From contig CAZMKX010000001.1 of assembly GCA_964566375.1 (NCBI GenBank), forward strand, positions 1 through 46,931: a DNA stretch of 46,931 nucleotides. Direction: 5' to 3'. The number at the start of each line of letters is the position of its first letter. Within the stretch, counting starts at the first letter, position 1. The notes under the pieces are model-generated. The model was not told where the DNA came from. It did not search any database and worked only from the letters and a program-made list of their open reading frames with translations. The DNA comes from an uncultured Myxococcales bacterium (GTDB taxonomy: Bacteria > Myxococcota_A > UBA9160 > SZUA-336). Below are positions 3,551 to 32,181 of this stretch, piece after piece. The position numbers were made by a program, and so were the translations under genes.

Positions 3551-4000
3551 TCAGGCCGACTCGGGCTGAACGATCAGCACGTCCGGCGTCGTGTTGGTGG
3601 TTGCGAACTCGAACTCGAAGGCGATCAGCGCCGCGAAGTAGTCGCGGTCGCCTGCCCCCGTGCGCGCGTACGTGGCGCCCGCATACCGCCGCTGAAGACC
3701 GATCCCGGTCGCAGCGATCAGCGCCTGCTTGATCTCGATCCCGACCTGGTCGCGCTCAGCCGGCGTCTTCCCGATCGCCGTGAAGCGAACGCGCAGCGCG
3801 TGGAGCTCGAGCCAGGTCCCCTCCTGCGACTCCGCAAGGCGCTGGATCTGGTCCTCGATCGGCTCGACCGCGATCGCCGGCACGCGCGCCCGAGCGAACG
3901 CGTGCGTCGGATCTTCGAAGACGTCAGCGCCCGTCGACGGAAGCCCCGTCACCGCGCCGATCAGCTCGTCGAGGATCTGCCGGACGGCGTCGACGCTCAC
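3551..4000 (-). CDS. Neck/tail-terminator-like protein (DUF3168-like)
   Basis: 149 aa. GTG start overlaps the upstream stop (GTGA). Position and overall pattern fit tail completion proteins; the family call is tentative. Confidence 0.55.
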   Translation of the reverse strand: MSVDAVRQILDELIGAVTGLPSTGADVFEDPTHAFARARVPAIAVEPIEDQIQRLAESQEGTWLELHALRVRFTAIGKTPAERDQVGIEIKQALIAATGIGLQRRYAGATYARTGAGDRDYFAALIAFEFEFATTNTTPDVLIVQPESA

Positions 4001-4302
4001 GAGGCCACGCGCAGGCGCAGCCGCGCCGTGCCGTGGCCGTCCGGGTGGACTTCGACGACGGTGTACTCGCGATTGCGGACGACCACCGTCTTACCCTGCT
4101 CGGCGCGGCCCATCGGAAGATCCGCGAGCACCACCGCACCCACCGGGCCGACACTCTCAACCGAGACGCCGTCAAGCCCGGCTTGAACGAACGCCTCGTC
4201 GAAGATCATCCGGACGCTCGCGCCGTCGTAGAGCGCCGACTCCTCGCAGAAGACGCCCTGCGTCGCTTCCTGCGCGAGGCCCGCGAGCTCGGACCAGTTC
4301 AC
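3997..4302 (-). CDS. Head-tail adaptor/head-closure-like protein
   Basis: 101 aa with a GTG start. C-terminal ...REYTVVEVHPDGHGTARLRL... resembles small head-tail joining proteins. Synteny supports the call. Confidence 0.55.
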   Translation of the reverse strand: MNWSELAGLAQEATQGVFCEESALYDGASVRMIFDEAFVQAGLDGVSVESVGPVGAVVLADLPMGRAEQGKTVVVRNREYTVVEVHPDGHGTARLRLRVAS

Positions 4303-4311
4303 CGTGGCGCG

Positions 4312-4683
4312 CTAGCTGTTCGTCGCGTTCCGAATGCCCTGGACGAGCAGCATGTTCACGGTCGTCTCGCCCGCACCGTTCGTTGTCGAGGAGACCGCTA
4401 TGCCGACTTCCTTCGTCGTGTTCGTCTTGTTCACGACCTTGCCGGAGTCGTCCCAGTAGAGCGCGTCGCCGATGCCGACGGCGAGCGAGCCGGTCTTCGT
4501 GATCTGCACGACGCCGCGCACGCGGAGCTGGCAGTCGACCGCCGCCGAGGTCGACGCGATGTCGTTCTCGGCCACGCCGAACAGGTTGCCGACGAGCACG
4601 CCGCCGCCGGCCGCCACGGAGGCCGAGGTCGAGAACGAAACCGGAATGACGTTCGCAACGTCCTGACGCACGTACTTGGACAT
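4312..4683 (-). CDS. DUF2190-family head decoration-like protein
   Basis: 123 aa. ...AGGGVLVGNLFGVAENDIASTSAAVDCQLRVRGVVQITKTGSLAVGIGDALYWDDSGKVV... matches the DUF2190 pattern recalled from many phage head modules. Confidence 0.75.
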   Translation of the reverse strand: MSKYVRQDVANVIPVSFSTSASVAAGGGVLVGNLFGVAENDIASTSAAVDCQLRVRGVVQITKTGSLAVGIGDALYWDDSGKVVNKTNTTKEVGIAVSSTTNGAGETTVNMLLVQGIRNATNS

Positions 4684-4744
4684 GGTTCCCCCCGAGCGGC
4701 CGCGACTAGCGGCCGGTTAGATGAATCGAGCCTGACTGGTCAGG

Positions 4745-5299
4745 TCACTTGAGCGCGATGAACGTCGCGCAGATGTCCTGGCACGCCTCGCGATAGAACA
4801 CCGAGGCGAACTGCTGGAACTCCTGGTTCCGCAGAACGATGTCCGGATGCAGCCGGTGCCCCCACTGAACCTCGAAGTCGCACGTGTAACAGAAGCACTC
4901 GGCCTGAGTCGCGCACACGCAATTCGCGATGTCCGAATGCGGTGCCTGCGTCTTGCGCCATGCGCGACCGAGGTACAGGAACCAGTGTTCCGACACCGGC
5001 GGCCACTGGTGCGTCAAGTCGCCGTAGGATCGACCGCTCGCCCAATGCGGAACGATGATCTCGGCCGTCGCGCCAGGCTTCAGCACCCGGTAGAGCTCGT
5101 TCGCGAAGTGGATCCGCTCGGGCGCCGTGAGGTGCTCGACGAACTGGTTGCAGTAGACCTCGTCGACCGACGAGTCGTCCCACTTCCACGGATTCCGCAG
5201 GTCGTGAACGACGATGTCCGTGCGCCCGTAGTCGCGCACGTCGACACCGACGAATCCTTCCTTCGGAGTCGGACCGCAGCCGAGATCGAGCTTCACCAC
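4745..5299 (-). CDS. Class I SAM-dependent methyltransferase
   Basis: VVKLDLGCGPTPKEGFVGVDV...VDEVYCNQFVEHL...LYRVLKPGATAEIIVP carries motif I, post-I and the LKPGG-like motif. GTG start overlaps the upstream TGA (GTGGTGA). The N-terminal two thirds of track ORF 4745..5965 is out-of-frame junk. Confidence 0.8.
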   Translation of the reverse strand: MVKLDLGCGPTPKEGFVGVDVRDYGRTDIVVHDLRNPWKWDDSSVDEVYCNQFVEHLTAPERIHFANELYRVLKPGATAEIIVPHWASGRSYGDLTHQWPPVSEHWFLYLGRAWRKTQAPHSDIANCVCATQAECFCYTCDFEVQWGHRLHPDIVLRNQEFQQFASVFYREACQDICATFIALK

Positions 5300-6029: not shown

Positions 6030-6644
6030 TCAGCGTGGCTGCGGTAGATTCGCAGGCCTCTTCAAGTGCTTCCAAGACCGACCGCTCTTGATGAACCGGA
6101 TCGCTTGATACCCGACACCGAAACGTCGCGAAACAGAAACGCAACCCTCGCCAGCAGCAAGACGTCGGATGACGCTTCGCGCCTGCGACTCGCTGAGCGT
6201 CGCCATCTTCGAACGCTCTCCGCAGATCAGACGACCATGCTTTCGCCGATCAGCAGCGTTCTGTTTCAAGGTTCCGTAAGCGAGATTCTTCGGACGATTG
6301 TCGAGGCGCTTCCCGTTCAGGTGCCGCAGGACAGCGCCGGACGGCCTCTTGCCGAGAAAGGCAAGCGCAACCAGCGTGTGTACATGAACACGCGATTGCG
6401 CTCTACCTTCCTTGCAGCGCGGATCAGAATCCGGCTTACGGATAGTGCAGTGCATGTAACCGTCCTGGCCGAGATAACAGCGCATCTGGCGCGGCGGACG
6501 TTCCGAGTATGGGATGCGCGACCCCACACTCGGAACGTCAGCACCACGCGATTTCGCGATGTATCTGTTCCAGAACCTTGACGAGTAGAGCAGCCCCCGC
6601 TCGTCCGCCCAGTAACCAGGGAACCCAGGGATTTCTTTTTTCAT
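6030..6644 (-). CDS. Free-standing HNH homing endonuclease (NUMOD4 + HNH_3 + C-terminal HTH)
   Basis: [17 protein letters not shown] (NUMOD4-like), [12 protein letters not shown]...[22 protein letters not shown] (HNH_3-like), [13 protein letters not shown]...[18 protein letters not shown] (HTH). Visibly lower GC than its flanks. Confidence 0.85.
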
Positions 6645-6664: not shown

Positions 6665-8713
6665 TTACGCTCCTGCGTTACAGTAGCCACCCCGCCAGTC
6701 GATGCCGCCCACGTAGAAGTCGAACGCGACCCGGAGCTCGACGCCCTCGACCTCGAAGCCCGAGCGGCTCATCACGCGCGGTCCGGCCGAGCCGGACAGC
6801 GAGCCGTAGGCGAAGTTCGGGAAGAGCGCCGGGTCGGCGAACAGCCACCAGCGGTTGCCCGAGAGGTTCGCGTCGAGGATCGGCTCGATCTTCCCGGCCC
6901 ACGGGTTCTGGCTCGTCGGCGCCGACGGCACGTAGGCCGCCGACGTGTACTGGAACGCCAGTTCCCGCTTGCCCGGAGCGGCGAGCAGGTAGCGCGGCAT
7001 GATGTTCAGCTTGATCCCGTCGCCCAGGTTGTCCGCGCCGATGCCGGTCTGCGACTGCATGAGCGTCGCGCCCACGGTGATGCTCGTCGCCGAGATCGCC
7101 GTGCCGCTCGAGGTGTAGTTCGCGTGACCGCCGGCCGTGGTGAGCGCCGTCGCGTTGAACATCGCGCCGGTGTCGCCGAGCGTCGGGCCGACCGTGCCCA
7201 GCAGGGTGAAGAACGCGGCGTTCTCGAAGTCGGCGATCCGCACGCCGTAGGCCCCGAGGACGCGGCCGAAGGCGTTCAGGTCGTCGTTCACGAGCATCTG
7301 GCGCGAGAACGCGAGGCGCCGGCCGTAGGTGCCGAGCGCGACCGTGTTCTTCTGCTCGGCGAAGTGCCCGAGCTTGATCTCGCCGTTCTCCCCGACCGCA
7401 AGCGGCTGCGGGAAGTCGCCGACGTTCAGGACCGACGCCGACTTGAAGTCGGGCAGGTCCTGCCGGATGCAGAGCTGCCGGTAGGTCGGAACCGCCGCCG
7501 CATAGGCCGGGAGCAGCACCTTGTTGCTGGCGTTCGCCAGCAGGTTCGGGTAGTCGCTCGTCGAGAGCGCGAGCTCGACCACGCGCGAGCGGTCGCGCTG
7601 ATCCACGCCGCGAGCGATGCGCAGGCTGCGGATCGTCTCGTAGGCGAGATCGATGAACCCGAACTGCGCGAACGCGCGCGCCTCGGCGGGCACTTCCTTC
7701 CGCACCGCGCGCGCCGCGAGGGCGACCGCCATGCGCTCGGACTTCGACTCCCAGGAGTCGTGGTCGTCGCCGACCGTGATGCTGCCGCGCGTCGGCGGCT
7801 CGCGCCGCTTGCGCTCCTCGGCGGCGAGCTGCATCAGCGCCTTGATCGGCGTGCCGAGGTTGATGTGCTTCTGGACCCACAGGTCGTCGAGCCCGTAATG
7901 CTCGCCGACCCGCTTCGCCTGCGCCGCGAGCTGCTGGTCGCGCTCGATCTCCTCGTCCACCAGGCGGGCGACCGTGCTCGGCGAATCCGCCGACTTCGGC
8001 TTCGCCTGCGTCTCGGTGTCCTTCGAGTGCAGCTTCACGTCGAAGGCACTCTCCTCGATCTCGACGATCTCGCCGAGCTTGCCGACGTCCTCGATGTCCG
8101 CGAGCAGCCGAACCTTCATGGCTTTCCCCCTGTGCGCGTCGGCATCGGCCGCTGCGCTGAAGTTGATCTGGCACGGAAACTTCTCTGCCGAGTCCGACAG
8201 AGCCTGGGCACCGGGATCGGCACCGACTGCGACGAGGGAGACTTCCATCGGCTCCCAGTCGATCGCGAGGAACTTCTTCGTGCGATCACCCTTCTCGGTG
8301 ATCTCTTTCATCTGGTGGACGACAGCGCCCATCGAGACGTTGCGGATGATCTTCGACTTCACGTCCTCGAAGATCGGGCCGACATCCTCGCGCTCGCTGA
8401 AGCGGACGACGCAGTGCCCCTTGCCAGAGTCGATCCATGCGTTCTCGACGACACCGATCACGTTCGAGAGGTCGTACTGCGCGTGCGAGTTGAGCAGCGG
8501 TGCACCGCTCTTCATCCGGTTCAGCCGAACCGCCTTCGGGTCCATGCTGAAGGCGAGCTCGTAGATCTCGCCGTCCCAGTAGTTGAAGCGAGTGACGAAC
8601 GCGCCCGTATACCAGAGCAGCTCGACGGTCCGCTTCTCGGCGTCAAGGCTCTGAACGTCGACGTTTCCGCTCGCGCGCAGCTTCGGGAGGCTCAGGTCAC
8701 GCTGCTTCGGCAT
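6665..8713 (-). CDS. Prohead protease - major capsid protein fusion
   Basis: ATG 8713 with a GGAGGA SD. The N-terminal roughly 170 aa resemble an HK97-type prohead protease (...APLLNSHA...VIGVVENAW...IIRNVSMG...). A charged linker/scaffold-like segment follows, then a C-terminal roughly 330-aa capsid-like domain ending ...[30 protein letters not shown]. Confidence 0.8.
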
Positions 8714-10208
8714 CGTCGTCCTCCGTCGGCTTCTTGGCGGGCTTCGCTGGCTCCACCTTCTGCTGCGTTCGCGCATCGCTCGTGAGCGTCAGGCCACGCT
8801 CATCGACCTCGCGCTTGAACTCTTCGATCTCGTCGAGCTTCTCGCGCCAGTCGTAGCCCTCGCGGCGAAGCGCGTTCGGGTAGCTGTCGATCCCAGCCTG
8901 GATCGCCTCGACCATCGCCGGGATCTCTTTCGCTGGATCGAGCAGACCGAAACGAGGCGGTGTATAGACCGCTGGCGTCCGCGGATTCACGGAACCGTCG
9001 AGCACGCCGAGCGCACCGACGAACGCTTCCCAGATCGGCCGGCAGAGCTGCGGCACCGTGAGCTGCCACTGGTCGGCCTCGACCATCCCGCGGAACTGCA
9101 CCAGGCCGCCGCGGTGACTCGTGTACGTCACCTGCGACAGATCTCCGGTCAGCAGCTCGTAAGGAACACCGAGACCCGCCGCAACCGCGTGAAGCTGCAC
9201 GCTGTTGAACGGCGAGTAATCGCTCGAGGGTCGCGGATCTGCGACCGTCACCGACTCGCCCGGCTTCAGGTATCCGACCATGCCCGGGCGCCACGACTCC
9301 TCGCGCGAGCCGTCCGTGCCCTGCGCCGTCGGGCCGATCGTCGCGCCGGGAAGTCCCTGCGGCGTCGTCACCCACGCGGCGAGACACGCCGCGATCTTCT
9401 TGCGCATCACCTCGGCGTCGTCGTAGTCGTCGAGCGCGCGAAGCCGGAGCATCACCGGCGCGAAGTCGGTCACACCGCGGCGCTGCCCAGCGCGCAGCGG
9501 CTTGAAGTAGTGGATCACCTCAGACGCAGGCACCCGCCGGCTCGCGTAGCCGCGCCGGATGCTCGCGACGATCGAGCTGTCGCCCGGGTGCGAGTCGAAC
9601 AGCCAGTAGGCGACCGGGCGCTCGCCCTGGTACTCGATCCCCTGCCGGATCTCGTGGTCCTCGCTGATCGCTTCGTTCCGGCTGCTGTCGATGAAGTCCG
9701 GCTCGAGCAGCTGCAGCCGAAGCGGCACGTCCCCATCGAACGCGGGGGCCGTCGCATAGAGCCTGACGAGCGACTCGCCGGCCTCGCTGCGCGTGCGCTC
9801 CGCGAGGCTCTGCATCCCGTAGAGATCGTGACACCGAGACACGTCGCAGACGTCGGCCCAGCGCTTCCACGAGTCGTCGATCCGTCGATTGATCCGCCGG
9901 TTCGGGCCCGCCGCCTGACACAGGATCCCCGTGCCGATCTTGTTCGAGACGATCACCGCGAGGCCCTTCGCGGCGTGCGGGTTGTTCCGCACCAGGTCTC
10001 GGGCGCGATCGCGCAGCAGTTCCTGATCGGCCGAGATCTCGGCGTCTGCCGACGTCGCGCCCGTCGACCAGCCATCCGTGCGGCGACCGCGGCGCGCGCC
10101 CTCGTAGGCGAGCATCGCCTGCATCACCGCGCGCGCCTGCGCGCGCTGCGCGCCTCGCACGGGAGAGAGCCAGCCGATCGTGCGATCGAGCCAGTTCAGG
10201 TCAGCCAC
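8697..10208 (-). CDS. Portal protein, lambda (gpB) family
   Basis: 503 aa with a GTG start. LNWLDRTIGWLSPVRGAQRAQARAV...YEGARRGRRTDGW...LRDRARDLVRNNPHAAKGLAVIVSNKIGTGI matches the lambda-family portal N-terminal pattern. Confidence 0.9.
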   Translation of the reverse strand: MADLNWLDRTIGWLSPVRGAQRAQARAVMQAMLAYEGARRGRRTDGWSTGATSADAEISADQELLRDRARDLVRNNPHAAKGLAVIVSNKIGTGILCQAAGPNRRINRRIDDSWKRWADVCDVSRCHDLYGMQSLAERTRSEAGESLVRLYATAPAFDGDVPLRLQLLEPDFIDSSRNEAISEDHEIRQGIEYQGERPVAYWLFDSHPGDSSIVASIRRGYASRRVPASEVIHYFKPLRAGQRRGVTDFAPVMLRLRALDDYDDAEVMRKKIAACLAAWVTTPQGLPGATIGPTAQGTDGSREESWRPGMVGYLKPGESVTVADPRPSSDYSPFNSVQLHAVAAGLGVPYELLTGDLSQVTYTSHRGGLVQFRGMVEADQWQLTVPQLCRPIWEAFVGALGVLDGSVNPRTPAVYTPPRFGLLDPAKEIPAMVEAIQAGIDSYPNALRREGYDWREKLDEIEEFKREVDERGLTLTSDARTQQKVEPAKPAKKPTEDDDAEAA

Positions 10209-27248: not shown

Positions 27249-27983
27249 GTGCTCACCTGGGAAAGCATCCGCAACACCTTGCATAATCTCGCGCTCGAGC
27301 GTGGCGAGATCGCCGGCTACCCGATGCCGATCGAGGGGCATGAGCTCCGCGTAGCGAAGGGCGTCAACTTCTCGCACCTCGAAGGCGCGCGCCTGGACTC
27401 GCCCGAGTCTGAGTGGGTGTGCTCGAAAGACGATCTCGCCTGGGTCGAGCGCACGAGCTGGTGGTGCGCGAAGCGGCGTGCGCGGATCATCATCTGCCAG
27501 CGCCAGCGCGCCGACGGAAGTCTCGAGCTCGACTGGTGCGCTGATCCTCCGTTCGGCGTCGAGCTCGAGCCGCTCCGCCGTTTCTACTTCCTGCAGCAGA
27601 CGCTCGACGCTGGCATCAAGGCGTGGGACTTCGACGCCGAAGCCCGAGCCGTCGAGACGCTGAAGACGCTCATCTCGAAGCCGCAGATGGATCGCTATTC
27701 CACGCTCGGAATGTTCGTGGAGTCGTCGAAGCGCAGCGGCGCCGTCTATCTCTTCCGGCGCTGCCGCCCGACGCTGGTGCTGCTGCGCACGAGCGGCGGG
27801 AACTTCCGACCCTCAGTCGCGCTCTGCCTGCATCCGCTCGCGTACTACGGCCACACGTTCGCGGGCGGGATGGTGCCCAGCGACGACGTGATCGCCCACC
27901 TGATGCTGATGCGTGGTGACGAGCACGGCTTCTGGAAGCGCGCGAATCAGCACCCGATCGATCGCCTGGAGGCTGGCCTGTGA
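27249..27983 (+). CDS. Hypothetical protein (244 aa)
   Basis: GTG start with coherent coding pattern. Conserved-looking C-terminus ...LCLHPLAYYGHTFAGGMVPSDDVIAHLMLMRGDEHGFWKRANQH. No family named. Confidence 0.6.
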   Translation: MLTWESIRNTLHNLALERGEIAGYPMPIEGHELRVAKGVNFSHLEGARLDSPESEWVCSKDDLAWVERTSWWCAKRRARIIICQRQRADGSLELDWCADPPFGVELEPLRRFYFLQQTLDAGIKAWDFDAEARAVETLKTLISKPQMDRYSTLGMFVESSKRSGAVYLFRRCRPTLVLLRTSGGNFRPSVALCLHPLAYYGHTFAGGMVPSDDVIAHLMLMRGDEHGFWKRANQHPIDRLEAGL

Positions 27984-29374
27984 GCAGCACCAGCTCGATC
28001 GAGTGGACAGATGCGACCTGGAACCCGGTTCGCGGCTGCGCCCGCGTATCACCTGGCTGTGGCGGCGCCGACGGCGGCGGCTGTTACGCCGAGCGAATGG
28101 CGCACCGCTTCTCCGGACCGGGCGGGCCCTATGAAGGCCTCACGCGTATGACGGCGCACGGCCCGCGCTGGACCGGCAAGGTTCGGCTCGTGCCCGAGCT
28201 GCTCGACTGGCCGCTGAGCAAGCGGAAGCCGCTCAAGATCTTCGTCAATTCGATGGCCGACTTGTTCCACGACGACGTGCCGGACGAGTTCATCGCGCGC
28301 GTCTGGCAGATCATGGGTGCTGCGTCCTGGCATACCTACCAGATTCTGACGAAGCGACCGGAGAGAATGCGCTCCTGGGTCGTCCGCTGGTACGCCGGAG
28401 AGATCACAGAGCCCCACTCCGTGCTCCCGGTGCCCGGCTATCCAGGCTACTCCGTGACCACGCACGGCCAGGTTCTGGGGAAGCGCGCAGATACGAGCAG
28501 TGGGCTCTCGTTCGACGTCGGCGAGCAGGGGCACCGGCGCGTCACGATGCACCGCGACAGCTCACCCAAGAGCGGCGAGCGCGAGCTCGTGCACCGCCTC
28601 GTGCTGGAGGCGTTCGCCCGACCTGCGCGCGCTGGCGAGCAGGCGTGCCATCGCAACGGAGACCCAGGCGACAATCGCCTCTCGAATCTCTACTGGGGAA
28701 CGCAGGAGAGCAACTGGCGAGACCGGATCAGCCACGGGCGCGGGCGCGCGTATGCGAAGCTGACTGCTGCCGACGTCGCGAAGATTCGCTCCCGATGCGC
28801 CTCCGGAGAACCGGCGGCATCCGTCGCTAGTGACTTTGCAGTCTCGGATACCCAGATCAGGAACATCGCGAGTGGTAGGCAGTGGTCGACGCCTGCCGGG
28901 GAGCGGCCGTCCGGCCCGCCGACGCGCGTGATTCTCGATTCGGTTTGGCTCGGCGTCTCCGTCGAGGATCAGGAGCGCGCCGACGAGCGGATCCCGCTGC
29001 TGTTGCAGACGCCGGCCGCGGTGCGGTTCATCTCGGCCGAGCCGCTGCTCGGCGGGCTCGACCTGACGCCGTGGGTTCATGCGTTCAACGCTGACCACGA
29101 CGGGCGCGGCTGCTGCGAGACTCCGCGAGGGCTGCTGCATTGGGTGATCGTCGGCGGCGAGAGCGGGCCCGGCGCGCGCGAGTGCCGCGTCGATTGGATC
29201 CGCAGCATCCTCGCGCAGTGCCACGCGGCCGGCGTCCCCGCGTTCTGCAAGCAGCTTGGATCGAAGCCAACCATGAGCGCGAGCGACTGGACGCACAACC
29301 GCGAGCGCGGCGGGAAGGGGGACGATCCCGAGCAGTGGCCGCCCGATCTGCGCGTGCAGGAGTTCCCGTCGTGA
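27980..29374 (+). CDS. DUF5131 (phage Gp37/Gp68 family) protein interrupted in frame by a NUMOD4-HNH-HTH module
   Basis: N-terminal part IEWTDATWNPVRGC...CYAERMA...IFVNSMADLFHDDVPDEFI...WHTYQILTKRPERM, and C-terminal part VWLGVSVEDQERADERIPLL...VRFISAEPLLGGLDL...WVIVGGESGPGAR...AGVPAFCKQLG, look like the two halves of a DUF5131 protein. Residues about 141..316 look like an HNH endonuclease (VPGYPGYSVTTHG...LVHRLVLEAF...CHRNGDPGDNRLSNLYWGT..N...HTH). Confidence 0.8.
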   Translation: MSSTSSIEWTDATWNPVRGCARVSPGCGGADGGGCYAERMAHRFSGPGGPYEGLTRMTAHGPRWTGKVRLVPELLDWPLSKRKPLKIFVNSMADLFHDDVPDEFIARVWQIMGAASWHTYQILTKRPERMRSWVVRWYAGEITEPHSVLPVPGYPGYSVTTHGQVLGKRADTSSGLSFDVGEQGHRRVTMHRDSSPKSGERELVHRLVLEAFARPARAGEQACHRNGDPGDNRLSNLYWGTQESNWRDRISHGRGRAYAKLTAADVAKIRSRCASGEPAASVASDFAVSDTQIRNIASGRQWSTPAGERPSGPPTRVILDSVWLGVSVEDQERADERIPLLLQTPAAVRFISAEPLLGGLDLTPWVHAFNADHDGRGCCETPRGLLHWVIVGGESGPGARECRVDWIRSILAQCHAAGVPAFCKQLGSKPTMSASDWTHNRERGGKGDDPEQWPPDLRVQEFPS

Positions 29375-29874
29375 GCATCATCGAACGCCTGCTGACGCGG
29401 GGCTTCGGCGCGCCCGAAGAGATCAACGGCGGCGAGCGTTGCCCGACCTACATGTTCCGCTGGCACGTCTTCAAGTGGCCGCGGAACGCGGAGCCGACGG
29501 TCGACGAGCGCGAGCTCGGCGAGCCGCCCGAGCACTCCGGCGGCGATCGGCTGCGCGTCTACGTGCACAAGTTCGTCGCCGACGACTGGTCGCGCGATCT
29601 GCACGACCACCCGAAGCGGTTCATCTCGATCGGGCTCTGGGGCTCGTACATCGAGGAGACGCCGCAGGGCGAGCGCGTCTACCGAGCTCCGTGGATCCGC
29701 ACGTTCCCGGCAGAGCACGTTCACCGCCTGCGCCTGCGCTCGCGGGTCTGCTGGACGCTCGTCATCACGCTGCGCGCGGTGCGGCCGTGGGGCTTCTATC
29801 ACGAGGGCGCCTGGGTGCCGTGGCGCGAGTACGTCGAGGGTAGCGCTGCCGACGCGCGGGTGTCGTGCGAATGA
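29371..29874 (+). CDS. Hypothetical protein (167 aa)
   Basis: GTGA-coupled start. ...CPTYMFRWHVFKWP...RLRVYVHKFVADDWSRDLHDHPKRFISIGLWGSY... No family named. Confidence 0.55.
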   Translation: MSIIERLLTRGFGAPEEINGGERCPTYMFRWHVFKWPRNAEPTVDERELGEPPEHSGGDRLRVYVHKFVADDWSRDLHDHPKRFISIGLWGSYIEETPQGERVYRAPWIRTFPAEHVHRLRLRSRVCWTLVITLRAVRPWGFYHEGAWVPWREYVEGSAADARVSCE

Positions 29875-30284
29875 AGGCCGCATCCGATACGCAGCAGACC
29901 GACCTCTTCGCCCGCGCGCGCACCGCCGACCCCGCGTCGTCTCACGCCGCCGCCGAGCGCGTCGAAGCGTCGGGCGAAGCGAAGATCCAGCGCGAGGTCG
30001 CCGCGGCGCTCGTCGCGCGACACCCCGGCGCCACCACGCGCGAGCTCTCGGCCTGCCATCCGCCCGGAGAGAACCGCGAGTCGTTCTACCACACGCTCGC
30101 GCGCCGCCTGCCCGAGCTCGAGAGAGCGAAGCGCGTCTACGCCGTGTCGACCGGAAGGGACTCGCTCCGCTGGCGGCCGGGGCGCAAGCCGGGGTCGATC
30201 TGCCCGCACCACCGCTGCGGAGAGCGGAGGCCGTGCGGGGTGCATGCGGTCGAGGCGAGTCGAGAGGAGAGGTTTCAGGGGTGA
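29871..30284 (+). CDS. Winged-helix-like hypothetical protein (137 aa)
   Basis: ATGA-coupled start. ...IQREVAAALVARHPGATTRELSA...SFYHTLARRLPELERAKRVY... Confidence 0.5.
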   Translation: MKAASDTQQTDLFARARTADPASSHAAAERVEASGEAKIQREVAAALVARHPGATTRELSACHPPGENRESFYHTLARRLPELERAKRVYAVSTGRDSLRWRPGRKPGSICPHHRCGERRPCGVHAVEASREERFQG

Positions 30285-30946
30285 TCCTGCCCGGCCACAA
30301 GCATCCCGCGCCCCACGGCACGCATGCTCGCTACGTACACGGCTGCCGCTGTACCGATTGCCGCGCCGGACATGCCGCGACCGTGCGCGCTCGGATTGCT
30401 CGTGGGCGAGCCGCCGCGCGAGAGCTTGGCCCGGCGATTCCCGGCACGCTCTGCCCCGGCGTGAACGGTGCTCCCTGCAAGCGCGGCCGGAAGCTGCGCG
30501 CCGGCAGCCTCGCCGTCTGCTTCGATTGCCGCGGCTCGCTGGTGTGGAACGGCCTCGTCGATGCGGCTCCCGCGCGCCGTCACATGCGGAAGCTCTCGCG
30601 GCGAGGCGTCGGGTTCCGGGCCGTGGCGGCGGTGACGGATATCGGCCTGACGACGATCCAGAAGATCCGCAACGGCAAGCGCCGGCGCATCCGAAAGGCG
30701 GTCGCGGATCGCATCCTCGCGGTGACGGCCGCGGAGGTTTCCGACGGCGCGCTCGTCCCGGCAGGCGAGACCAACCGCATGCTGCGCGAGCTGGTGACGG
30801 AGTACTTCACGCGCGGCGAGGTCGCGCGGCAGCTCGGGTACAAGTCGCTCGCGCTCCAGATCGGGAAGAACGGGCTCGTGCTCGCGCGGACGGAGCAGCG
30901 GGTGCGGAGGCTGTACCGGCGGGCGATGGGGGAGGAGGCGGCGTGA
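30281..30946 (+). CDS. DNA-binding protein upstream of integrase (possible recombination directionality factor)
   Basis: GTGA-coupled start. HGTHARYVHGCRCTDCRAGHA motif, then HTH-like segments (...VTDIGLTTIQKIRNGKRR..., ...RGEVARQLGYKSLALQIGKNG...). Overlaps the int start. Confidence 0.5.
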   Translation: MILPGHKHPAPHGTHARYVHGCRCTDCRAGHAATVRARIARGRAAARELGPAIPGTLCPGVNGAPCKRGRKLRAGSLAVCFDCRGSLVWNGLVDAAPARRHMRKLSRRGVGFRAVAAVTDIGLTTIQKIRNGKRRRIRKAVADRILAVTAAEVSDGALVPAGETNRMLRELVTEYFTRGEVARQLGYKSLALQIGKNGLVLARTEQRVRRLYRRAMGEEAA

Positions 30947-32181
30947 CGGCTGCGGCCCTCCACTCTTCCCGGGCCGCCCCTGTCCGTGGTATCGACTGGT
31001 CCGTGAGCGAGGACTTCGGGCACGTCCGCCAGCGCCGCGACGGCCGCTGGTACGTCGACTGCGGCAGGTTCGGCCGCGTCTACAGCAGCAAGGGCGCGAA
31101 ATTCGAGCGGCGCCGCGACGCCGAGCACGTCCTCAACGCCATCCGCTCGGTAATCGCGGAGGGCAAGCCCAAGGCTCAGGCCGTCGACGCCTGGATGCCG
31201 ACCACATCGGCCGCGCACCGGGTGGACGTGTGGCTGGCGCGCTGGCTGAAGCGCATGAGCGAGCTCCAGGCGGCCGGCGAGCGCAGCAAGGAGTACGTCG
31301 ACGAGCTGCGCCGCTGGTGCGCGAAGGGAGGGAAGCACGCGCACCTCGCCGGCTACTGGGGCCGGCGCAGCGTGCTCGAGATCGACTACGCGGGACTCGA
31401 GGAGTGGTGCGCGTGGCTCGAGCAGCGCGGGCTCTCGGCGAAGACGCGGCACAACGTCGTCTCCGCGATGAGCGCCTTCCTCGGCTGGCTGCGAAAGCTT
31501 GAGGAGATACCCCGCGTGCCGGTGATCCCGTGGCCGAAGGTCGCCGAGCACGCGCCGCGGATCCTCGCGCCAGCGGCGCAGGCTCGAGTGCTCGAGCAGA
31601 TCCCCGTCGGCGCCCGCGGAATCTTCATGGCGCTCGCGCTGCTCGGCCTGCGCCCGAGCGAGGCGCAGCGGCTCCGCGCGCAGGACTACTCGCCCGGCGA
31701 GCCCGGCTGGCTGACCGTGACCCGCACGAAGAACGGCCAGGTGAAGCGGCTGCCGGTGCCGAGCGATCTGGCCGACTGGATCGCCGAGCACGTCGAGCTC
31801 GACCCGCTGAAGGGGGCAGCGCCGCTGTTCTCGATCCCGTACTTCGGCAGAGGCATCCGATCGACCCGCGGCTGGAATCCGACGAGCCTGCGGATGACGT
31901 GGGCGAAGGCGTGCCGCGCGGCAGGCGTGCGCGCATCGCTCTACGAAGGGACGAAGCACAGCCGCGCGACCGACCTGCTGCGCCAGGGCGTTCCCGAGCG
32001 CGTGCTGCAAGCGATCCTGGGCCACAAGGATCCGCGATCGACCCGCCGGTACGCGCGGCTCGCCGATCAGGCCGTGGTGGAGGCTTTGTGGCTCCGACGT
32101 GACTCCGGCTCTGGCGTGGCTCCGGAGGCTCCGAAGGCAGCGTCGCAAGTGCGCGTAATCAAACGAGGTACGGAAAAGTGA
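30943..32181 (+). CDS. int: Tyrosine integrase
   Basis: GTGA-coupled start, 412 aa. SAM-like N-domain (...SAKTRHNVVSAMSAFLGWL...). Catalytic-domain motifs: ALLGLRPSEAQRL (Arg), KHSRATDLL (His-x-x-Arg), ILGHKDPRSTRRYARL (His...Tyr). Confidence 0.9.
   Translation: MTAAALHSSRAAPVRGIDWSVSEDFGHVRQRRDGRWYVDCGRFGRVYSSKGAKFERRRDAEHVLNAIRSVIAEGKPKAQAVDAWMPTTSAAHRVDVWLARWLKRMSELQAAGERSKEYVDELRRWCAKGGKHAHLAGYWGRRSVLEIDYAGLEEWCAWLEQRGLSAKTRHNVVSAMSAFLGWLRKLEEIPRVPVIPWPKVAEHAPRILAPAAQARVLEQIPVGARGIFMALALLGLRPSEAQRLRAQDYSPGEPGWLTVTRTKNGQVKRLPVPSDLADWIAEHVELDPLKGAAPLFSIPYFGRGIRSTRGWNPTSLRMTWAKACRAAGVRASLYEGTKHSRATDLLRQGVPERVLQAILGHKDPRSTRRYARLADQAVVEALWLRRDSGSGVAPEAPKAASQVRVIKRGTEK

Follow-up and report, generated by a model that had tools for sequence, protein, structure and literature searches.

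The textbook view holds that a homing endonuclease can sit inside a useful or essential gene only with an intron or an intein to remove it. I-HmuI, for example, is a separate protein made from an open reading frame (ORF) within an intron, which is lost from the host mRNA by splicing. Free-standing endonucleases are found next to or inside their target genes, as with T4 mobE and with nrdA split by a mobile endonuclease (PMC2790892; PMC3045599). The closest published parallels to the locus described here come from two computational studies of actinophage methylases. In Taj gp79 and eight relatives, a lone LAGLIDADG domain is nested in frame; its inheritance was judged to be mostly vertical, and it is predicted to form its own lobe (PMC9957025). 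The ShiLan domain is an in-frame insert with no splicing signature, a disjunct distribution and recombination within the gene, and its HNH is read in a frame other than that of the host gene (PMC11855218). Here we report a gene for a DUF5131 (Gp37/Gp68) protein that carries an HNH endonuclease module in the frame of the host (DUF5131::HNH). The gene lies in contig CAZMKX010000001.1 of an uncultured Myxococcales bacterium, and the whole contig, 46.9 kb, constitutes the window of this study. The nested module had been noticed in a preliminary description of the window, and this observation was confirmed. We consider it probable, on balance, that the module is a non-spliced in-frame homing endonuclease that is tolerated in a permissive loop of its host protein and exchanged by gene conversion, with the present copy as an old resident.

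The ORF at 27980..29374 (+) is unbroken and encodes 464 amino acids (aa). DUF5131 (PF07505) matched it in two stretches (Pfam, E = 2.9e-75; 253.4 bits against a gathering cut-off of 28.9), the better of which covered aa 5-135 and profile positions 2-121 of 243. Local hidden Markov models of the N- and C-terminal halves of DUF5131 matched in order. PHROG 2045, a phage family of unknown function, gave a single match over aa 1-438 with the middle skipped, and aa 148-305 were covered by several HNH PHROGs. In the Pfam profile search proposed in the preliminary description, HNH_3 (PF13392) matched aa 203-245 with 26.2 bits (cut-off 24.8), and no Hint or intein profile matched at E <= 1. The preliminary description had read the two flanks as one DUF5131 protein with neither a stop nor a frame change at the junctions, while allowing that they might fail to match a DUF5131 profile. 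The two Pfam stretches, the PHROG 2045 match and the continuous ORF bore out this reading. Its placement of about 175 inserted residues at 28400..28927 was essentially right, and alignment with the closest uninterrupted homologue, P0098 (305 aa), refined the boundaries to 28382..28933. Query aa 1-134 aligned with residues 1-129 of P0098 at 75% identity and aa 319-464 with its residues 140-302. Where P0098 has a loop of 10 residues, the query has 184, which makes 174 codons more. At the DNA level, the flank alignment extended up to 28381 and resumed from 28943.

The insert is a predicted complete I-HmuI-like HNH endonuclease, made up of a beta domain, an H-N-N core and a helix-turn-helix (HTH). 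When the structural model of the protein was searched with Foldseek, I-HmuI (PDB 1u3e) was the sole significant match in the PDB (172 columns against the 174-residue chain, E = 4.8e-7). The sequence profile of the nested family matched I-HmuI at E = 5.5e-17, with I-HmuI residues 2-120 corresponding to family-profile positions 145-267. The top matches among predicted viral structures were nearly all free-standing HNH homing endonucleases, and free-standing HNH proteins of 157-175 aa aligned over 92% of the insert. Among 99 inserts, H224, N236 and N245 were conserved in every one, N232 in 98 and H205 in 97. In the same set, at least 90% conservation was found for G156, Y157, G163, G184, H185, R187 and V188 of the N-terminal beta domain and for S289, T291, Q292, N295 and W302 of the HTH, the helices of which span residues 263-274, 279-286 and 290-297 in the model. 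Given an intact and strongly conserved nuclease active site, the fusion protein has most likely kept the ability to nick or cut DNA.

The three-part NUMOD4-HNH-HTH architecture given in the preliminary description stood in its outline. The free-standing HNH gene of the window at 6030..6644 aligned with aa 151-314 (31% identity, E = 4e-16) across all three parts, including the HTH end. The NUMOD4 label, on the other hand, was not reproduced by Pfam at E <= 1 in the window copy, and the NUMOD4 profile did match the homologous inserts of P0045, P0073, P0082, P0089 and P0057. In structure, the N-terminal domain of the window copy corresponds to I-HmuI. Table 1 lists the parts of the gene.

Table 1. 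Parts of the DUF5131::HNH gene, with positions in the window.
Feature	Position	Strand	Basis
DUF5131 radical-SAM-superfamily protein with nested HNH endonuclease, complete ORF	27980..29374	+	continuous ORF; Pfam; AF2 model
N-terminal DUF5131 half, aa 1-134	27980..28381	+	three-Cys motif C20/C27/C35; LTKRPERM ending beside insertion point
Insert, aa 135-318, including variable linkers on both sides of the nuclease module	28382..28933	+	alignment with P0098
N-terminal beta domain of the nuclease module, aa 148-203 (PGYPGY, NUMOD4-like)	28421..28588	+	HNH PHROGs; I-HmuI profile alignment
HNH catalytic core, aa 204-253, with His224, Asn232, Asn236 and Asn245	28589..28738	+	Pfam HNH_3; conservation; Foldseek
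His224, proposed general base of the HNH core	28649..28651	+	
C-terminal helix-turn-helix DNA-binding domain of the module, aa 260-302	28757..28885	+	model helices; weak HTH profile matches
C-terminal DUF5131 half, aa 319-464, opening with VWLGVSVED strand	28934..29374	+	alignment with P0098

The N half, the insert and the C half share one frame in all 18 loci for which DNA was available. The spacing between the N half and the insert took at least nine different lengths among the IMG/VR loci, and the frame was always kept. At third codon positions, the G+C content (GC3) of the insert was 0.81 and that of its two flanks 0.84 and 0.89, which identifies the host frame as the translated one. The ratio of nonsynonymous to synonymous substitution (dN/dS) of the insert, read in the host frame, was 0.086-0.11 in three pairs, equal to or below that of the flanks, for which the comparison of the window with P0003 gave 0.13-0.27. 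From these observations we infer that the gene would be transcribed and translated as one 464-residue polypeptide, with nothing spliced. No promoter or terminator of relevance was found inside the gene. An internal start at Met130, which is preceded by GGAG, would yield a separate nuclease; this candidate was rejected, because Met130 is a conserved DUF5131 residue shared by uninterrupted genes and thus, together with its GGAG, gives no evidence for a start. Transposon-like ends were rejected as well, since there was no target-site duplication and the repeats around the insert were only short GC-rich chance matches.

The nested architecture is a minority one that recurs. Of the 120 top homologues (40-63% identity), about 95 have a homologous insert of 134-239 residues in this position, which in the uninterrupted homologues is taken by a variable loop of 8-67 residues. 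The window copy is without any close relative (best, 63% identity overall). When 1.84 billion cluster representatives were searched with the insert alone, 47 clusters fell below E 1e-30. About 49 of the best 150 matches were nested in DUF5131 and the rest consisted of HNH modules only, single or in tandem, which puts the nested family at about 47-49 clusters at 50% identity. No other host protein with the same module was present among these best 150 representatives. The nested form occurred in 13 IMG/VR viral contigs, in metagenome-assembled genomes (MAGs) labelled Actinomycetes, Deltaproteobacteria, Sorangium and Thermoguttaceae, and in NCBI-listed proteins from Streptomyces sp. and Ferviditalea candida. 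It was absent from 50,697 GenBank phage records, including all 418 of those with DUF5131. The preliminary description had called the arrangement unusual for this family, and it had named routine interruption of other DUF5131 proteins as a finding that would speak against its reading. The first statement did not survive the count among the best homologues. The second was borne out among these homologues and not in the family at large, where the phage records leave the nested form in the minority. The literature searched held no description of DUF5131 or Gp37/Gp68 with a nested HNH, and the nested architecture seems undescribed.

The inserts themselves vary. A longer subtype of about 230-239 aa (P0039, P0061, P0066, P0070, P0092 and others) has about 40 extra residues inside the N-terminal nuclease domain, with a C-x2-C ... 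C-S-x2-C pattern of zinc-ribbon-like appearance. No second mobile element was found with Pfam in the longer family members. The insert of P0075 (134 aa) is without the N-terminal beta domain and that of P0078 stops after the HNH core, without the HTH; these truncated inserts may be decaying copies. Among the nearest relatives of the insert outside DUF5131 are polypeptides of 230-760 aa with two to six tandem HNH-module matches (P0164, P0169, P0171, P0178, P0227 and many others).

The structure prediction proposed in the preliminary description placed the insert in a loop between a helix and a strand of the host. The AlphaFold2 (AF2) model, built from 115 homologues, had a predicted local distance difference test score (pLDDT) of 91.9 and a predicted template modelling score (pTM) of 0.90. 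Helix 127-138 precedes the insert in the model and strand 322-327 follows it, at an alpha-to-beta connection of a (beta/alpha) barrel, and the insertion point comes directly after the conserved LTKRPxRM motif. The alpha-to-beta loops of a TIM barrel face opposite its catalytic face. The insert would accordingly project from the barrel face away from the catalytic face, and because of this position the site might tolerate loops of any length. The host could in this way accommodate the module with its conserved residues left intact. In the 115 homologues, which are mostly interrupted proteins, C20, C27, C35, K125, R126, R129 and M130 were invariant or nearly so, and G325, R337, E354, G392, E394-G396 and R400 of the C-terminal half were invariant; in all, the cysteine triad and about 15 other DUF5131 residues were invariant or nearly so. 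The three N-terminal cysteines are presumed to be the ligands of a 4Fe-4S cluster. Judging from this conservation, both partners, the nuclease and DUF5131, look functional.

The cysteine spacing of the window copy is C-x6-C-x7-C, as opposed to the usual C-x6-C-x2-C of 103 of 110 family members. The longer spacing between the second and the third cysteine occurred in the other seven (seven residues in six of them and eight in one), including the uninterrupted P0087. In the window copy the motif at aa 20-35 (28037..28084) contains a Gly-rich extension of five residues, GCGGADGGGCY. The only stretch of the model with pLDDT < 50 is aa 371-381 (29090..29122; HDGRGCCETPR), a variable loop of the C-terminal DUF5131 half that holds two adjacent cysteines. 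Among known defence systems, the DUF5131 halves matched only the 'B' components of two candidate anti-phage systems of PADLOC, PDC-M41B and PDC-M30B (E = 1.5e-63 and 8.2e-60), and PADLOC gave no match to the partner components of these systems among the genes neighbouring the DUF5131 gene.

The relation of the inserts to their flanks points to exchange between alleles. Uninterrupted homologues were 63-70% identical to the query flanks and interrupted ones 49-67%. On the flank tree, uninterrupted genes were interleaved with interrupted ones, and the presence or absence of the insert required about 10 changes. In bootstrapped neighbour-joining analysis, the insert tree had 21 supported splits and the flank tree 13; only 4 splits were common to both, and 7 pairs of splits were in conflict. 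Individual proteins showed the same discordance: P0019 has an N-terminus 97% identical to that of P0035 and an insert that clusters with the one in P0031; P0037 and P0118 are sisters in their flanks and differ in insert subtype; and P0095 differs in insert type from P0084 and P0089, with which its flanks are sisters.

The clearest tract was found between P0003 (locus L001, 13.5 kb) and P0004 (locus L061, 7.2 kb), for which nucleotide similarity was confined to the DUF5131::HNH gene. The main match is an 833-nt block of 86% identity over codons ~76-353, that is, the insert and its proximal flanks, and two more short, weak matches lie further into the gene. Third-position identity at shared codons was mostly 0.7-0.89 over codons ~74-283 and about 0.5 outside. 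Synonymous divergence (dS) was 0.42-0.68 across the block (0.48 in the insert) and 1.0-1.3 in the distal flanks. The block has the look of gene conversion centred on the insert. As far as trees and alignments can tell, these comparisons demonstrate cassette exchange or recombination between DUF5131 alleles, in which the cassette and some proximal flank would have been swapped between otherwise diverged genes. The tree conflicts and the shared block centred on the insert favour an element that is, or was, mobile. The nuclease may provoke the gene conversion, at alleles that carry another version of the insert and, by homing, at alleles that are empty.

Of the three options left by the preliminary description, namely a domesticated internal domain, an intein-less in-frame mobile insertion and an intron whose ORF reads through, the last was given up and the first two were retained. 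A spliced element, whether a group I or II intron with a read-through ORF or an atypical intein, is the least probable of all the explanations weighed here. It would fit with the facts that many HNH enzymes of the I-HmuI type are intron-encoded, that HNH domains occur inside inteins (bioRxiv 10.1101/2025.01.02.630785) and that the insertion adjoins a conserved host motif, as is typical of introns and inteins. The search for intron folds, however, matched no intron family of Rfam 15 at E <= 10 in 27700..29600, where there were only four unrelated weak matches, and the RNA of the insert folded no better than shuffled sequence (z = +0.85; control ORF, +0.31). Nearly all of its 552 nt are protein-coding and under strong purifying selection, therefore there is no room for a ribozyme core, and an intron would not need to keep frame with the downstream half through many linker lengths. 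Both kinds of intron were rejected on these grounds, with dN/dS of about 0.1. An intein was rejected for the lack of a Hint profile and of conserved junction residues, in agreement with the preliminary description, which had seen no intein signature. The linker columns of the 99 inserts were variable and rich in gaps, with neither a conserved Cys/Ser/Thr nucleophile nor a terminal His-Asn at the junctions; neither the N-terminal Cys/Ser/Ala of an intein nor its C-terminal His-Asn plus Cys/Ser/Thr was conserved. Position 132 was S in 46, E in 21 and A in 14, and the C-side of the insert runs through W or P to Leu319 without a conserved Asn. The fold of the insert in the model is only I-HmuI-like. 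It is also very improbable that the host gene is functionally broken, its enzyme inactivated by the insertion and its DUF5131 halves bound for decay, with an ORF that stays open through the rarity of stops at 69% G+C, or with a nuclease that borrows the translation signals of the host. No invariant DUF5131 residue has been lost from the flanks of interrupted genes, these flanks are under purifying selection in the window and P0003, their GC3 marks a true coding frame, and the frame is kept in every one of the 18 loci despite indels in the linkers. Long spurious ORFs do occur throughout the high-GC window, and the unusual cysteine spacing of the window copy would suit a broken gene, but the same C-x7-C variant is present in the uninterrupted P0087. 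A further point for this explanation comes from locus L006, at 3654..5077 of the JGI metagenome contig Ga0642624_14882 (P0052). Here at least two frameshifts divide the N-terminal DUF5131 half among three reading frames, and the HNH module and the C-terminal half form an intact ORF of 358 residues. The host gene may be decaying around a nuclease that is still alive, or the contig may be misassembled.

The main rival is a domesticated domain: the HNH-HTH module would have been captured once, long ago, and inherited vertically as part of a bifunctional enzyme, with the tree conflicts due to general phage mosaicism. We regard it as a possibility to be taken seriously, if doubtful. One point in its favour concerns spore photoproduct lyase, a DNA-repair enzyme. 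DUF5131 is listed as a subgroup of the radical S-adenosylmethionine (radical-SAM) enzymes in the same Megacluster-5 group as this lyase (PMC9477430). Several results weigh against mobility. Near-identical flanks that differ in the presence of the insert were not encountered; the best such pair reached about 75% flank identity. In the L001/L061 tract, both alleles are insert-bearing and the stretch of highest similarity stops within the insert, at aa ~283-298, so the tract could be ordinary homologous recombination or phage mosaicism. Across the 18 loci, the GC3 of the insert followed that of the flanks (r = 0.82), being about 8 points lower throughout a range of 0.60-0.92, and insert subtypes showed some clustering on the flank tree (10 state changes, with 18.6 expected at random); both results point to a long residence with vertical inheritance. 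The catalytic residues are kept in 98 or all of the 99 inserts and the structural residues of the module are conserved across these divergent copies, with dN/dS of about 0.1, as low as in the host halves or lower. Selfish endonucleases usually decay in many copies, and such conservation hints at a benefit to the host. The closest relatives of the insert are all in DUF5131 and in no other host protein, and the high pTM suggests a defined geometry between the domains, that is, a fixed and possibly co-evolved interface. The correlations of distances between segments do not help the case for a mobile cassette either. In the first hit list, which was chosen on total score and is possibly biased, the insert was seemingly decoupled from the distal flanks, but the N and C flanks themselves correlated poorly (r = 0.26), as expected if mosaicism is general, and with representatives chosen by the insert alone there was too little signal, the two halves of the insert correlating at only ~0.2. 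What argues against domestication is the interleaving on the flank tree, where some uninterrupted genes are closer to the query than any interrupted one and vertical inheritance would need many precise losses. Sister flanks with different insert types (P0037/P0118; P0095 against P0084/P0089) point the same way, as does the L001/L061 similarity, which has the insert at its centre, with nothing in common across the surrounding 7-13 kb. Most DUF5131 proteins do without the insert, and the truncated inserts of P0075 and P0078 would be unexpected for an essential domain. A more specific proposal is that HNH-HTH serves as the DNA-targeting or nicking arm of a bifunctional enzyme, which positions or opens DNA for radical-SAM chemistry or couples the cutting of rival alleles to expression of the host enzyme. 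This seems unlikely to us. If true, it would mean a new class of composite DNA-acting radical-SAM enzyme, and a homing endonuclease that, having become a structural domain, no longer needs to be spliced out.

Under the preferred reading, that of a non-spliced homing endonuclease exchanged between alleles, the module probably originated from free-standing HNH genes of the same family, which repeatedly adjoin uninterrupted DUF5131 genes. Such genes were found about 0.3-2.5 kb from DUF5131 in Gordonia phages Twister6 (L004) and EnalisNailo (L005), and similarly close in the MAG contigs L007 and L011 and the IMG/VR contigs L040 and L056. In L040 and L056 the free-standing HNH lies directly downstream of an uninterrupted DUF5131, and in L007 upstream of one that is already interrupted. 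These neighbouring genes fit a path that leads to an in-frame nested endonuclease.

The window itself contains a free-standing NUMOD4/HNH/HTH gene, at 6030..6644 (-), immediately downstream of the capsid gene at 6665..8776 (-) in the head module. Neighbouring genes have a GC3 of about 0.8-0.9 and this one 0.64, suggesting that it arrived much more recently than the nested copy. The nested module was considered as a recent duplicate of this gene, and this was rejected in view of the 31% identity and the very different GC3. The codon composition of the insert, by comparison, matches the host, and the nested copy is on this measure an old, compositionally ameliorated resident rather than a recent arrival.

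The window looks like a lambda-like temperate phage or prophage. It has a head module with terminase gpA, a lambda-family portal and the capsid gene; a recombination module with a YqaJ-type exonuclease and an SMC-like ATPase just upstream of the DUF5131::HNH gene; and a tyrosine integrase at about 30943..32181, about 1.6 kb downstream of it. The genes around DUF5131::HNH overlap by a few bases and resemble a packed phage early operon that ends at the tyrosine integrase. The genes at 27249..27983, 29371..29874, 29865..30284 and 30233..30946 (+) had no Pfam, NCBIfam or PADLOC match.

The locus can now be set against the described systems. The module shares with I-HmuI of Bacillus phage SPO1, which resides in a group I intron, the order of an N-terminal beta domain, an H-N-N HNH core and a C-terminal HTH. 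In contrast to I-HmuI, it has neither a start and stop codon of its own nor an intron, and it stays inside the host polypeptide. The arrangement of the subdomains in the model also differs from that of DNA-bound I-HmuI (root-mean-square deviation, 9.9 Å). In HNH-bearing inteins, the nuclease is likewise in frame and translated with the host protein (bioRxiv 10.1101/2025.01.02.630785). The DUF5131 insert, however, is without the Hint domain, the junction nucleophiles and the terminal His-Asn of these inteins, therefore it cannot excise itself by known chemistry. Free-standing phage endonucleases, as in the cases of T4 mobE and nrdA, belong to the same nuclease superfamily and are associated with gene conversion and co-conversion of flanks, but they are separate ORFs that split a gene into two polypeptides, whereas in DUF5131 the frame runs through.

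The actinophage methylases and DUF5131::HNH have in common an in-frame, stop-free insert with no detectable intein or intron. In both, the insert lies in a non-essential phage enzyme and forms its own predicted lobe, and the fold of the host is left intact. Whereas the ShiLan HNH is in a frame other than that of its host, the HNH in DUF5131 is in the host frame, as indicated by the profiles and the GC3 of 0.81. The Taj insertion is a LAGLIDADG domain in a methylase of nine related phages; here, an I-HmuI-like HNH occupies a radical-SAM protein, and the family, with more than a hundred sequence clusters from phage and prophage contigs of several bacterial phyla, exceeds the methylase cases by far in size and also in taxonomic breadth. 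The actinophage reports suggested that some endonucleases simply stay in the protein, and the DUF5131 locus provides a much larger and older example. It offers, in one clonable gene, a way to ask whether a homing endonuclease can persist and move without splicing, and what this costs or gains the host protein. DUF5131 itself, an uncharacterised subgroup of radical-SAM proteins often found in the replication and recombination modules of phages, gains from it a first lead to its function, and the nuclease partner hints that this family may work on DNA. On the preferred reading, DUF5131::HNH is a real and recurrent arrangement by which a selfish nuclease resides within a protein without splicing. 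We conclude that it is a variant of a recently recognised kind, of which the new elements are an HNH in the host frame, a radical-SAM host and a large, widely distributed family.

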